Shown here: one piece after another, positions 58,000 through 63,296 of the stretch
Layout: every line of letters starts with the position of its first letter
How positions within the stretch are numbered: the stretch's first letter is position 1
Source of the DNA: an uncultured Holophagales bacterium
GTDB taxonomy: Bacteria; Acidobacteriota; Thermoanaerobaculia; Multivoradales; UBA5704
Assembly (NCBI GenBank): GCA_963842525.1
Contig: CAWJGT010000003.1
Span: 96,001-160,000 of the forward strand
Direction of reading: 5' to 3'
DNA: 64,000 nucleotides
Program-made: the position numbers and the translations under genes
The notes under the pieces: generated by a model
The model's input: the letters and a program-made list of their open reading frames with translations, nothing else
Told to the model about the DNA's origin: nothing
Database searches by the model: none

Positions 58000-58502
58000 G
58001 CATCGATTTCAGATAACTCTGGATGCCTTCCAAGAATTCTGTATCGATTTCGGGTGACGTGAAACGCATTCGAGGCCAGATGGAATCGATTTCGCGTGAG
58101 GTGGAATCGATTCCAAAAAATCTGGATGCGTTCCAAAAATTCTGAATCGATTTCGCGTGACGTGGAACGCGTTCCAGTTTAAGTGAAATCGATTCCAAAA
58201 AATCTGGACGCGTTCCAAAAATTCTGAATCGATTTCGCGTGACGCGGAACGCGTTCCAGTTTAAGTGAAATCGATTTCACGTGAGGTGGAATCGATTCCA
58301 AAAAATCTGGACGCGTTCCAAAAATTCTGAATCGGTTTCGCGTGACGTGGAACGCGTTCCAGTTTAAGTGAAATCGATTTCACGAGAGGTGAAATCGATT
58401 CCAAAAAATCTGGACGCGTTCCAAAAATTCTGAATCGGTTCAACGTCACCCGCTACGCGTTCAGGGTCGCGGTGGATCGATCCAGCGTCATTCTGGATCG
58501 AC
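58000..58502. repeat. AT-rich array of about 25 palindromes (ATCGAT/ACGCGT cores) at 20-21-bp spacing with a 103-bp higher-order period
   Basis: Cores at 58002, 58023, 58043, 58064, 58085, 58106, 58126, 58146 ... 58476, 58497. Confidence 0.92.
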
Positions 58503-58603
58503 ATCCTTCCCCGCCCGAGAAGACAGGATACCTTCATCCCGATAGGGCAGGCGCGTCCGGCCGATCGAGGCCGGGCCGGCGTCCTGCCGGAAGGGAGCTT
58601 TCC

Positions 58604-58909
58604 ATGTCCTGCAAGTCTCTCGGACTCGGAGCCGGCCTCGTCCTCCTCCTCGCCTGCCTGGGAGCCGCACCGCTGACCGCCGCGCCGGGGCCGCGCGGGC
58701 TCGTTGCGCCCGAGCCAGCCGCCCGGAGCCTCCTCGCCGACCTGTGGACCCTCTTCGGCCGGCTGTTCCAGACTGACACGGCGGACAACCGGTGCAGCAT
58801 CGATCCCGATGGATGCCCGGCCGCGACCGGCGACAACCGGGGCAGCATCGACCCGAACGGGCTGCTGTCGGAGCCGGACAACCGGGGGACCATCGATCCC
58901 AACGGCTGA
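58604..58909 (+). CDS. Small secreted protein (101 aa) with three DNRxxIDPxG repeats
   Basis: RBS AAGGGAG; signal peptide; amphipathic LLADLWTLFGRLF; DNRCSIDPDG, DNRGSIDPNG, DNRGTIDPNG-stop. Confidence 0.8.
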   Translation: MSCKSLGLGAGLVLLLACLGAAPLTAAPGPRGLVAPEPAARSLLADLWTLFGRLFQTDTADNRCSIDPDGCPAATGDNRGSIDPNGLLSEPDNRGTIDPNG

Positions 58910-59016
58910 CTCCGGCCCGGGGAGCCGTCCTGCGGTCGCGGCTCCCCGCATCTTCCCTTGCATCCGAGGTTCCTTCTTCAGGTAAACTGTTCTCGACGAG
59001 AGAGACGGAGCCCGGC

Positions 59017-59271
59017 ATGACCTCCTCCGACCGCCCCAGCCCCGAGGACCTCGAACGGGTCGTGGCGAGCGCCCGTTCCGAGATCGTCCGCCTGTTCGAG
59101 GAGCGGGGAGTGCCGGACGAGGAGGCCGAGCGCCGGATCGGCGACGCCCTGGTGCGGCTCGCCTGGCGCTGGGGCCGGGTGCGCAACCGGGCCCGCTGGC
59201 TGGTGACGACCCTGGACAAGGAGACCCGGAACCGTGAGCAGACAACCCGAGAAAGACCCGCAGGAGGATGA
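59017..59271 (+). CDS. 84-aa protein resembling ECF sigma factor region 2 only
   Basis: I.RLF...GVP.EEAE..I.DAL..L...W..VRN...WL..TL pattern; RBS GGAG; no region 4. Confidence 0.55.
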   Translation: MTSSDRPSPEDLERVVASARSEIVRLFEERGVPDEEAERRIGDALVRLAWRWGRVRNRARWLVTTLDKETRNREQTTRERPAGG

Positions 59272-60488
59272 GCAGCCCCCGACGGGGGAGCCGAAGACGC
59301 CCGCACCGGCCAACCGCTACGAGAGGCCGTTGGACCGAGGGCTCGCTCGCGGGGTCCGGGAGCTTCTCCCGGCTGTTTCAGGAGATCGACGAGGGGAAGG
59401 CTCTCCTGACCGACCTCTTCCGCAGAAGCGCGCCCGAGCGCAGCGTGGCCGTGGTGGAGGAGACCCGGTTCCAGGCGCTCGGGCTCTGCGAGCTCCTGCA
59501 GGCGAGGAGCCAGGAGCTCTGGTTCTCCGACCCCGCCGCCGCGGTCGACCTGGCCGAGCTTGCCGTCGCCGTGGCCGGCCGGCTGGACGAGGAGCACTAC
59601 GGCCGAGCGTTGGTCGAGGATGCCCGCGCCCTGGCCTGGGGCCATCTGGGCAATGCGCGCCGCATCGCCTCCGACCTCCGGAAGGCGGAGGAGGCGCTCC
59701 AGACCTCCGAGCAACACCTCGCCTTATCCGATGCCGACGCTCACACCGAGGCCCAGATCCTGAGCTTCAAGGCGTCCCTGAGAAACTCCCAAGGGCGCTT
59801 CGATGAAGCAACCCAGCTCCTGGACCGAGTCATCGCCATCTACCGCGACGCCAGGGATCGCCACCTGGAAGGCAAGGCTCTGATCAAGAAAGGAATGGTC
59901 ATGGGAGACGCGGGCCGGCACCGTCCGGCCGTCCGCCTGCTCCGGCAGGGGCTCTCTCGGATCGTCCCCTTCGAAGAACCGGCCCTCCTGGTCTCGGCGC
60001 GGCACAACCTCATTCTGTATCTCCATGAGAGCGGGAGGAACGCGGAGGCGGAAAGCGCTCTTGTCGAGACGCGTGGGCTCTACGACGAGTTGGGCCAGCC
60101 GACGCACCGGATCCGCCTCGGTTGGCTGGCGGGGAAGATCGCCCGCGATCTCGGCCGCCTCGACGAGGCGGAGACCGTCCTGCGGCAAGCCCGGGACGCC
60201 TTTATCGCCCAGGGCATCGGCTTCGACGCGGCCCTGGTCGCCCTCGACCTCGCGCTGGTCCACGTACGGAAGGGAGACCGCGCCGAGATCAAGCATCTGG
60301 CGGCGGAGATGGTCCCCATCTTCCAGTCGCGTGACGTGCACGCGGAAGCGGCCGCCGCGCTGGTCCTCTTCCAGAACGCCGCCGAGGCCGAGGAGGTCAC
60401 CGAAGATCTGGTCCGCCAGATGGCCGCCTACCTCCAGCGCGCCCGGCACGACCCGGATCTGCGGTTCGCCGCCAGGAAGAGGAGCTAG
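59234..60488 (+). CDS. Tetratricopeptide repeat protein (start is either GTG 59234 with a +1 frameshift near 59358, or ATG 59268)
   Basis: Serial TPR-like helices: AWGHLGNARRI..DL..AE, ASLR..QGRFDEA..LL, ARHNL..L..GR..EA, G.I...LGR.DEAE. Confidence 0.82.
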
Positions 60489-60510: not shown

Positions 60511-60687
60511 TCAGCAGTTGCCCGAGCAGTCCCACCCCGCGATGGTGCAGGCCTTGTAGATTTCGCAGCTCGGCCCGGTGTTGCCACCTGCGACCGCTTC
60601 GTCGCGCAGCTCAATGCTCTCGGATTGGAGTCGGAGCAGCGTCTCTTTGTTGAGGGTGATTTTCTTGCCTTCTTTGGTCTTCTTCAC
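60511..60687 (-). CDS. RiPP precursor, lanthipeptide-like (58 aa)
   Basis: RBS AAGGAG plus GTG; leader KKITLNKETLLRL..AVAGG; core NTGPSCEIYKACTIAGWDCSGNC. Confidence 0.75.
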   Translation of the reverse strand: MKKTKEGKKITLNKETLLRLQSESIELRDEAVAGGNTGPSCEIYKACTIAGWDCSGNC

Positions 60688-60836: not shown

Positions 60837-61145
60837 ATGATGAAGTCGAGAACTTTCCCTGAGCTGTTTGAGGAAGCGGAGCGGCACGAAGACTACTGGG
60901 TGGCGGGCGCGATCCTCGAGCTCACGGAAGACGTAGTGCGGGAGATGGAGCGCCAGGGAATCACCCGCACGGAGCTTGCGCAGAGACTCGGCATTACCCC
61001 CGCGTACGTGACCAAGACCCTGCGCGGCCAGGTGTGCTTCTCCCTCGCCACGATGGTGCGGCTGGCTCGCGCGCTCGACGCGGAGCTCCGCGTCCAAATC
61101 GCAGGCCCAACTGTGACGACTGCGAAGAGAGCACACCCCCGGTGA
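60837..61145 (+). CDS. XRE-family HTH protein (antitoxin-like)
   Basis: M...GITRTELAQRLG.TPAYVTK.LRG...SL.TMVRLA.ALD. Confidence 0.85.
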   Translation: MMKSRTFPELFEEAERHEDYWVAGAILELTEDVVREMERQGITRTELAQRLGITPAYVTKTLRGQVCFSLATMVRLARALDAELRVQIAGPTVTTAKRAHPR

Positions 61146-62305: not shown

Positions 62306-62608
62306 TCATCTCCTGATATGGAGCCCGAGGAGGATCCCGTCCGTGCTGAGTACGTCTCGCGCGTAGCCGACCGCAGCGAGCACGTCCTCGCGGGTCAGAC
62401 CGGGGTAGTCGACGAGGATGTCATCGATCGCGGAGCCGGCAGCGATCTTTTCGAGGAGGATCTCCACCGTGATCCGAGTGCCCCGGATGACGGGCTTTCC
62501 CAACATAACTTGCGGGTTGATGTTGATGCGTTCCAGGAGATCCTCCGGTATAAGGTGGCTCGGGGAGGGGCGGCCTTCCCGGCAGGCGTAGTCTAGCAGG
62601 AACCGCAC
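62306..62608 (-). CDS. DUF433-family antitoxin-like protein with an atypical N-terminus
   Basis: RI.INP.V..GKPVIRGTRI.VE.LL...A.G.....IL.DYP.LT.EDV.AA..YA. Confidence 0.75.
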   Translation of the reverse strand: MRFLLDYACREGRPSPSHLIPEDLLERININPQVMLGKPVIRGTRITVEILLEKIAAGSAIDDILVDYPGLTREDVLAAVGYARDVLSTDGILLGLHIRR

Positions 62609-62843: not shown

Positions 62844-63296
62844 ATGGTGACCCGACACGTCGAGTTGACAGAAGAGCAGAATGAGACTCTGGAGCGGCTT
62901 GCCGCCTCTGAGGGACGACCCGTCTCAGAGCTGATCCGTGCCGGGGTGGATGTCGTCCTGGGTAGAAGGGGATCCACCCTGCGCCTCGTCCATGGCAACG
63001 GCAAGGGGACGTCTGAGCAGGCGCCGCGCCTTTCGGAGAAAGAGTCGGAGCTTCTCCTGGCGATCAATCGAAGTCTGCCAGAGCCAAGGGCCGGGCGTTA
63101 CCGAGAGCTGGTGAGCCGGCGCCGGGCGGGTACGCTCAGTCCGAAGGAGCATCAGGAGCTGCTGGACTTGACCGACCAAGTGGAGCAGTTGCAGGCCGAG
63201 CGGATCGAGCATCTGGCAGAGCTTGCGCAGCTCCGCGGCCGGCCGCTCGGAGTGCTGCTGGAGGAGCTCGGAATCCGGCCCTCTCCGTCCGAATGA
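62844..63296 (+). CDS. Ribbon-helix-helix (CopG-like) protein with a helical C-terminal domain; putative antitoxin
   Basis: V.LTEEQ...L..LA...GR.VSELIR.GV; RY.EL..RRR.GTL...E..EL; ATGA overlap with the HNH gene. Confidence 0.72.
   Translation: MVTRHVELTEEQNETLERLAASEGRPVSELIRAGVDVVLGRRGSTLRLVHGNGKGTSEQAPRLSEKESELLLAINRSLPEPRAGRYRELVSRRRAGTLSPKEHQELLDLTDQVEQLQAERIEHLAELAQLRGRPLGVLLEELGIRPSPSE

Follow-up and report, generated by a model that had tools for sequence, protein, structure and literature searches.

Duplicated cassettes of DPxG propeptide and TPR genes in Thermoanaerobaculia-like Acidobacteriota, a candidate RRNPP-like peptide-sensing system

The DNA examined here (the window) is a stretch of 64,000 nucleotides from an uncultured Holophagales bacterium of the Acidobacteriota (assembly GCA_963842525.1, contig CAWJGT010000003.1, positions 96,001 to 160,000). 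Our subject is a locus at 58604-60488, where three co-oriented genes encode a putatively exported propeptide with three DNRxxIDPxG cores, a short protein related to region 2 of sigma factors, and a tetratricopeptide repeat (TPR) protein. It is one of many cassettes of a system that is specific to the lineage of Thermoanaerobaculia-like Acidobacteriota and massively duplicated there, and we argue below, tentatively, that the system may serve peptide sensing. Iterated searches over all open reading frames (ORFs) of the 9.95-Mb assembly returned 66 peptide-family ORFs and 127 TPR ORFs, and a TPR paralogue was found no more than 600 bp away from 58 of the 66, with 8 lacking such linkage. Since the TPR genes and their 600-bp margins occupy about 3% of the genome by our estimate, the arrangement is far beyond chance.

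A duplicated cassette of peptide and TPR genes

The initial annotation of this DNA, made from the letters and ORF translations, had described the three co-oriented genes, and the ORF coordinates agree. It had also placed the end of the first protein exactly on the third core, and the stop codon does follow residue 101 directly. The third gene, put at about 410 aa and overlapping the second, encodes 406 aa and shares four bases with gene 2 (ATGA, 59268-59271), so that the TPR ATG lies inside the gene 2 stop. The propeptide gene lies 358 bp upstream of the TPR start, and its product is given no family by Pfam or NCBIfam. The signal peptide was judged by eye and its cleavage site was inferred. 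The features, all on the forward strand, are as follows.

58535-58606, +, structured 5' leader of gene 1, with the ribosome-binding site and ATG at its end (folding, covariance model)
58604-58909, +, gene 1, multi-core propeptide of 101 aa, predicted to be exported (ORF translation and family membership searches)
58604-58681, +, signal-peptide-like N-terminus, residues 1-26, with a hydrophobic core and ...LTA before the likely cleavage point (translation)
58727-58768, +, amphipathic pro-region SLLADLWTLFGRLF, the conserved L-W-x-x-L-x-x-x-W block of the family (family alignment)
58784-58813, +, core 1, DNRCSIDPDG, residues 61-70
58832-58861, +, core 2, DNRGSIDPNG, residues 77-86
58877-58906, +, core 3, DNRGTIDPNG, residues 92-101, with the stop codon immediately after
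59017-59271, +, gene 2, sigma-region-2-only protein of 84 aa, a putative three-helix remnant of an ECF-like sigma factor (profiles of relatives, AF2 model)
59268-60488, +, gene 3, all-helical TPR protein of 406 aa, predicted to be cytoplasmic, without zf-HC2 or helix-turn-helix (HTH) domain (Pfam, AF2 model)

The features of gene 1 recur throughout the peptide family. In 52 of the 66 ORFs a Met is followed by a hydrophobic stretch, and these 52 precursors carry one (20 precursors), two (18), three (13) or four (1) DPxG cores. The C-terminus falls exactly on DPxG in 19 of them and 1-8 residues past it in a further 27. The consensus of the core is (D/E)-x-G-(C)-x-(I/L/M)-D-P-(N/D/H)-G, often with x-C next, and outside the cores the most conserved part is the LWxxLxxxW pro-region. 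The six residues that precede DPxG are 64% identical within a precursor and 33% identical between precursors, and the cores are thus homogenised inside each precursor and diverged among precursors.

Matches to the peptide profile were found in every one of the 24 genomes sampled from the same family (8-55 per genome) and in 8 of 16 genomes of other families within the order. In a phylum-wide sample of 300 genomes the profile was found only in one same-family genome, a result to be read as 'not found' rather than 'absent' because only 17 candidates per genome were scored. The initial annotation had made its reading depend on co-localisation across genomes, and the pair, present about 58 times in this genome, recurs elsewhere: a TPR paralogue stands beside the peptide gene in all 11 of the best loci from 11 other genomes. 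A single-protein search of genome contigs gave only 2 loci. A profile search of 1.84 billion cluster representatives gave 3,486 matches at E<=0.001, of which 931 were at E<=1e-10. The record titles name Acidobacteriota and Thermoanaerobaculia, and every named match is a 'hypothetical protein', the others being nameless; the peptide clusters of the ESM Atlas are likewise from Acidobacteriota and carry no function names. One library protein of 731 aa (P0098) is matched by the peptide profile in 12 stretches. Two soil DNA runs contain 5-6% of the words of the window locus, whereas a look-up of RNA runs listed none for it, which counts neither for nor against expression. Consistent with the initial annotation, which knew of no such system, our literature searches of main texts found no description of such cassettes in Acidobacteriota.

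The cassettes are self-contained. Within 4 kb on either side there is no recurrent transporter, protease or modifying enzyme, and the largest cluster among the 527 flanking ORFs has 7 members. The only recurrent flank family consists of ORFs of about 200 aa with an XRE-like segment (7 ORFs near 9 cassettes). At C9:424157-437556 (C denoting contigs of the assembly) ORFs of this kind are interleaved with at least six tandem TPR paralogues and their peptide genes. The genome has 3 genes for SBP_bac_5 (OppA-type) proteins, two of which (C9:403483-405414 and C1:375095-376933, loci L082 and L083) are 2-3.5 kb away from a peptide/TPR cassette. The scanned ORFs that flank these two included no recognisable ABC permease; both genes are apparently orphans, and the sample is too small for any weight to be put on it.

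Regulator modules, the shortened sigma factor and the leader

The window TPR protein matches TPR_12 (E 6.1e-18, 65.2 bits, cut-off 30.1), the only Pfam family above its cut-off. A six-frame search of the assembly with this protein gave 129 matches at E<=0.001, 13 of them with in-frame stops, and the 127 paralogue ORFs are those of at least 150 bits, 53 being near full length. At the N-terminus 29 of the 127 carry the motif H-x3-4-C-x2-C, 20 are XRE-like and 78 have neither module, many of the last being fragments. The closest paralogue (contig C32, 64% identical) matches zf-HC2 at 30.6 bits (cut-off 22.2), and HTH_3 was above its cut-off, at 24-32 bits, in all five HTH-type copies scanned. These modules, as judged from the protein sequences, would mark the TPR paralogues as regulators.

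The layout of the genes follows the type of module. Of the 18 neighbour records of zf-HC2-type TPRs, 17 have the peptide gene upstream in the same orientation, and all 20 of the HTH-type TPRs have it on the opposite strand (9 divergent, 11 convergent). In a FastTree phylogeny of 31 paired TPR domains, midpoint-rooted, the seven HTH copies group in a single clade, and each of them is paired with cores that fit C-x-(I/L/M)-D-P-x-G-x-C. Only one of the 53 full-length TPRs has a borderline hydrophobic window, which lies inside a TPR helix, and the proteins are predicted to be cytoplasmic, none looking membrane-bound. The AF2 model of the window protein (pLDDT 86.8, pTM 0.84) has 20 helices in a TPR superhelix, with residues 1-30 disordered. 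Its top fold matches are the peptide-binding TPRs of LGN/Pins (TMq 0.53-0.61), and Rap receptors with their pheromone appear from rank 22 (TMq 0.46-0.57).

Gene 2 had been called sigma-region-2-like by the initial annotation. Searched directly against Pfam and NCBIfam the 84-aa protein matches 0 families at E<=1, and the assignment stands because the profiles of its relatives match. Relatives in the window genome include ORFs of about 170-270 aa, and one full-length paralogue matches Sigma70_r2 at 40.4 bits (cut-off 24) and Sigma70_r4 at 19.8 bits. The profile of 20 short forms was aligned by hhalign to that of 13 full-length paralogues at a probability of 99.2% (E 1.2e-19), covering only columns 3-73 of the 184-column full-length profile, its N-terminal half. 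Matches to gene 2 were found in 17 of 41 related genomes at E<=1e-6, and 32 loci of sigma relatives were read, yielding 20 short and 14 long forms. All 20 aligned short copies are of about 80-100 aa and end 5-25 residues past the region-2 match (8 in the window copy), and the 14 long forms run on for about 100 residues into region 4. Sigma70_r2 directly touches 5 of the 20 short forms (best E 4.1e-4), the window copy not among them. Two blocks that never vary in the full-length paralogues, DAED and YWRKRR, have been lost from the short forms. The AF2 model of the 84-aa protein has three helices (pLDDT 86.0); its fold search gave no significant match (best E 1.2), and the ECF (extracytoplasmic function) sigma2 domains that fill many of the top ranks (TMq 0.45-0.65) are likewise not significant.

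A TPR paralogue directly follows 12 of the 20 short forms. The full order of peptide, sigma2-only and TPR gene (the trio) occurs at 5 loci in the window genome, one with a broken TPR gene, and at 7 loci in other genomes, one of them in an uncultured Acidobacteriota metagenome-assembled genome (MAG). In this MAG locus (L057) the TPR is 63% identical to the window copy, the cores are NRGQIDPNG-like, and the sigma2-only and TPR genes again overlap by 4 bases, the TPR start being GTG. The H-x3-4-C-x2-C motif of zinc-binding anti-sigma (ZAS) domains is present in 9 of 9 TPRs that adjoin a full-length sigma gene versus 3 of 11 that adjoin a sigma2-only gene, and neither the peptide nor the TPR protein of the trio matches Sigma70_r4. 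To judge from these motifs, the trio resembles a sigma/anti-sigma pair that has decayed and yet been conserved. Since the sigma is reduced to region 2 and the TPR mostly lacks the anti-sigma motif, the 84-aa protein is more likely to be a sigma mimic or adaptor for the TPR than a promoter-recognising sigma factor.

The peptide genes also share a leader. The approximately 70 nt before most of them form a long imperfect hairpin with a GGCC-loop-GGCC tip. The window leader has a minimum free energy of -41.7 kcal/mol (z -3.62), and 1 of 200 shuffled sequences reaches such a fold. Among 52 peptide leaders z has a median of -1.33, against -0.20 for 100 control leaders (p 3e-6), and the GGCC tip motif is present in 20 of 52 peptide leaders against 4 of 150 controls. 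A covariance model (R2), built from 13 leaders of other paralogues, matches the window leader at 26 bits and has 38 matches at E<=1 genome-wide, 31 at peptide-family genes (the 13 seeds and 18 others), 2 at peptide-like ORFs missed by the census and 5 elsewhere. The two missed ORFs are one of 45 aa with two STMDPxG cores (leader match at C25:511437-511511) and one, probably frameshifted, that adjoins a TPR gene (C1:373302-373372). In an alignment of 35 distinct leaders, taken from the window genome and others, the paired share of cells is 82.4%, whereas shuffling gives 64.5 +/- 2.0% (0 of 500 as high); the alignment had been fitted to the model and so leans towards structure. The covariation score is 0.472 versus 0.191, and slid controls reach at most 48.8%. 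Conservation of the leader structure across peptide genes is thus supported.

None of the 4227 Rfam families has a match at E<=1 that overlaps 58535-58606. A MAFFT alignment of 25 leaders yielded no consensus structure because the stems were misaligned, and a model from the trio leaders (R1) was too sequence-specific, with 4 matches below E 0.01, all at trio-type loci (C29, C3, C32, C6). Masking of the ribosome-binding site was considered but is not supported (unpaired probability 0.36 versus 0.40 in 150 controls, p 0.2), nor is an intrinsic terminator after the peptide gene (hairpin z -1.51; 2 terminator-like sites in a scan versus 2.5 expected); the scan gave 0 sigma-70-like promoters. The element could act as RNA, or its palindromic tip could act as a DNA operator.

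What the cassettes may do

The reading that we favour, while holding it a little short of probable, is that these lineage-specific cassettes work like RRNPP peptide sensing, in the window with a degenerate sigma/anti-sigma output. Each cassette would combine a Sec-type exported propeptide, comprising signal peptide, pro-region and one to four near-identical cores that fit (D/E)-x-G-x-x-(I/L/M)-D-P-x-G, with a cytoplasmic TPR superhelix protein. The propeptide would be exported and cut to core peptides of about 10 residues, and these would re-enter the cell and bind to the concave face of the cognate TPR. Binding would then switch the N-terminal module of the TPR, which may be an XRE HTH or a zinc anti-sigma domain holding an adjacent ECF-like sigma factor. 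In the trio sub-family the sigma appears to have been cut to region 2 and the TPR mostly to have no anti-sigma motif, and the structured leader, the structure of which is supported, would add a shared layer of control to the peptide genes. The initial annotation had suggested RRNPP-like communication; the recurrent pair and the HTH-bearing TPR paralogues speak for it, and binding is so far suggested by genomic association and a weak complex prediction. Indirect support comes from the cores, alike within a precursor and unlike between precursors, from the correlation of peptide with TPR distances, from the pairing of the HTH clade with Cys-flanked cores and from the self-contained cassettes. 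The further suggestion of the initial annotation, that output runs through a split or truncated sigma factor in place of an HTH, is qualified in that the truncated form is not the norm.

Several points weigh against the RRNPP-like reading, and the first concern binding. The predicted complex of TPR residues 31-406 with propeptide residues 27-101, a test of the kind proposed in the initial annotation, scored 0.53 (runs of 0.56, 0.53 and 0.50) against 0.00 for the best of three controls. Unless binding was already likely, a pass at such a score is wrong more often than right. The calibration set held 80 solved complexes, of which 58 reached the pass mark, and 110 mismatched pairs, of which 2 did; scores of 0.60 or below came from only 7 of the 80 solved complexes and from both of the passing mismatches. 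The runs share at least 44% of contacts, the partner pLDDT is at least 38 and no interface was reported. The complex is therefore weakly supported by prediction. The correlation between peptide and TPR distances (Mantel r 0.236; 11 of 2000 permutations as high) may stem from co-duplication alone. Furthermore, in a diderm topology the peptide must pass the outer membrane twice and the inner membrane once, and many of the cores have Cys on both sides and are probably disulfide-looped, which would be awkward for Opp-type import. In a library protein of 669 aa (P0069) about 20 xDPxG units follow one another, so the unit can serve as a structural repeat as well.

The output side is also affected. 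In the window TPR the H-x3-4-C-x2-C motif is absent and no HTH is among the Pfam and NCBIfam matches, so this copy is without a recognisable output domain. Sigma neighbours are few: only 9 TPR ORFs have a sigma gene within 600 bp, most zf-HC2 TPRs have none, and for 8 of the 20 sigma2-only ORFs the 3.2-kb locus contains no TPR gene. As an output, the sigma2-only protein is derived and confined to a minority of copies rather than the norm. RRNPP-specific models, too, are missing from the Pfam and NCBIfam matches of the TPR at E<=1.

A private pheromone network is a possibility about which we are more doubtful. It would comprise dozens of orthogonal DPxG peptides per cell, each with its own TPR receptor, with HTH, anti-sigma or mimic outputs and a shared leader, and it would represent an independent origin of RRNPP-kind sensing in a diderm phylum.

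Alternatively, control may run one way, the TPRs regulating the neighbouring gene while sensing something else and the peptides being the output, as antimicrobial, metal- or calcium-binding, or surface-active molecules. We consider this unlikely. In its favour, the HTH and anti-sigma modules would mark the TPRs as regulators in this case as well, the Cys-flanked loops and the array of about 20 units in the 669-aa protein would fit a structural or effector peptide, and the complex prediction is weak. Since the genome is LanC-rich and an orphan lanthipeptide-like precursor lies 23 bp downstream of the TPR gene, peptide natural products would be common here. Against one-way control, the provision of one dedicated regulator per peptide gene, about 58 times over and with strand rules that depend on the type of regulator, is the pattern of receptor and ligand. 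Cores that are alike within a precursor and unlike between precursors also count against it, as does the score of 0.00 for all three complex-prediction controls.

It is improbable, in our estimate, that sensing takes place before export, with the TPR binding the unprocessed precursor in the cytoplasm as a chaperone or as a switch coupled to export in the way of FlgM-type anti-sigma control, and with no re-import. The TPR proteins are indeed predicted to be cytoplasmic, the pro-region is the most conserved part outside the cores, the diderm re-import problem would disappear, and the predicted complex, made with the whole of residues 27-101 and giving no interface, cannot tell which part binds. 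However, a conserved pro-region cannot confer specificity on each of about 58 pairs, Sec substrates normally leave quickly, and co-translational export leaves little free precursor.

Two further explanations have very little probability. The peptides could be multi-core precursors of ribosomally synthesised and post-translationally modified peptides (RiPPs), with the TPR as biosynthetic scaffold or recognition protein, as the conserved leader-like region and a weak NCBIfam match of the TPR to HaaT, the TPR protein of a cyclophane RiPP (E 4.3e-5), would allow, but the HaaT score (21.8 bits) falls far below the cut-off of 1125, the flanks show no recurrent modifying enzyme, the precursors have Sec-type signal peptides and the TPR paralogues have HTH or anti-sigma domains. 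Equally remote is RNA-level control, in which the helical-repeat protein would bind the leader hairpin of the peptide mRNA and tune its translation or stability: the leader is conserved, supported by covariation and family-specific (33 of the 38 model matches at peptide or peptide-like ORFs), and a PDB profile search with the TPR protein lists designer pentatricopeptide repeat (PPR) proteins at E 1.4e-11, but such matches are generic helical-repeat similarity with TPR_12 as the sole Pfam family over its cut-off, the paralogues carry DNA-binding or sigma-binding modules, and the ribosome-binding site is not paired more than in controls (unpaired probability 0.36 versus 0.40, p 0.2).

Relation to known systems and the flanking DNA

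The sensing of peptides inside the cell by TPR receptors is regarded as characteristic of Bacillota and their phages. The cassettes share with the RRNPP(A) systems (Rap-Phr, NprR, PlcR-PapR, PrgX, Rgg-SHP, AimR-AimP) a TPR-type receptor, predicted here to be cytoplasmic, with an adjacent small propeptide that would be exported and a candidate active part at the propeptide C-terminus. The analogy is strengthened because some paralogues fuse an XRE HTH to the TPR and have their peptide gene on the opposite strand, the arrangement that is also found in Rgg-SHP. Rap and pheromone structures are among the fold matches of the window TPR. RRNPPA propeptides with tandemly duplicated pheromone units have been reported (PMC11343458).

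The differences are equally clear. The N-terminal effector module of RRNPP receptors (an HTH or the Rap three-helix bundle) is missing in the window TPR, although about 20 HTH-type paralogues have an HTH, and most copies carry the zf-HC2 anti-sigma motif or nothing in its place. The cores, many of which are enclosed by two cysteines, have a fixed DPxG end in common; about 58 pairs are present per genome, and a structured leader precedes the peptide gene. The host belongs to the Acidobacteriota, generally regarded as a diderm phylum. The only AimR-model match nearby is to the HTH of an unrelated 102-aa protein at 60837-61145. The large-scale RRNPP detector is described by its authors as applied only to Firmicutes and viruses (PMC10075063). 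We conclude from this comparison that the cassettes resemble RRNPP systems in layout and are not members by sequence, taxon or output domain.

The significance of the cassettes is that they would place RRNPP-like genetic logic in Acidobacteriota that are abundant in soil and for the most part uncultured, with about 58 cassettes to a genome and 3,486 library clusters of the peptide. If the peptides are signals, the cassettes would constitute a large unexplored communication system in soil and a natural library of orthogonal peptide-receptor pairs. Apart from signalling, they provide a candidate sigma-mimic protein family, a soluble zf-HC2-TPR anti-sigma architecture and a new candidate cis-regulatory RNA.

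The cassettes also overlap with ECF sigma/ZAS anti-sigma systems. The full-length paralogues of gene 2 have Sigma70_r2 and Sigma70_r4 and are followed by a zinc-motif TPR in 9 of 9 loci. Genes 2 and 3 are adjacent and co-oriented with a 4-base overlap, and many sigma/anti-sigma gene pairs overlap similarly. They differ in that the window sigma is without region 4, the window TPR is without the ZAS motif, the anti-sigma would be a soluble protein bearing a large TPR domain, and the first gene of the operon encodes a putatively secreted peptide. In those passages of the ECF re-classification that contain the word tetratricopeptide, TPRs appear only as the C-terminal extension of ECF42 and in the FecR-like anti-sigma of ECF267 (PMC7826278).

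Two further systems offer a precedent for gene 2. As in SigO-RsoA, a small stand-alone protein corresponds to sigma region 2; however, the window trio encodes no sigma4-only partner and the short forms lack the DAED and YWRKRR blocks of their full-length paralogues. PhyR, which acts by binding an anti-sigma, resembles the 84-aa protein in its degenerate sigma-like module and in the anti-sigma-binding role proposed for that protein, but it keeps both sigma-like halves on a receiver domain and is switched by phosphorylation, whereas here a lone region 2 is found with a TPR partner. SigO-RsoA is described as having its sigma4 and sigma2 domains on separate proteins, and PhyR as having decayed promoter- and core-contacting regions in its sigma-like module (PMC8103513).

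The DNA on either side of the cassette holds some minor features. Directly upstream, 58002-58440 consists of AT-richer (49% GC) tandem repeats with periods of 82, 103 and 185 bp, for which Rfam gave only sub-threshold noise from microRNA models; weaker copies are present at only four other places in the genome (C3:1740272-1740473, C27:35168-35587, C9 near 700722-700851, and C25). Downstream, a convergent ORF of 58 aa with a strong ribosome-binding site lies on the reverse strand at 60514-60687, 23 bp past the TPR stop. Its product combines a Lys-rich leader and a GG site with a tail rich in Cys, Ser and Thr, and matches the class I lanthipeptide leader model NF038153 weakly (17.2 bits, cut-off 22). 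Its only paralogue (38% identity, E 0.33) is just upstream of two LanC-like genes at C3:879267-881722; the window copy has no LanC gene in its vicinity, and the MAG locus (L057) lacks the ORF. Further downstream are small genes matching HTH_3 (60837-61145, 40.5 bits), DUF433 (62306-62608, 80.7 bits) and a ribbon-helix-helix family (62844-63296, 27.3 bits), and these suggest an antitoxin-rich and possibly mobile stretch.

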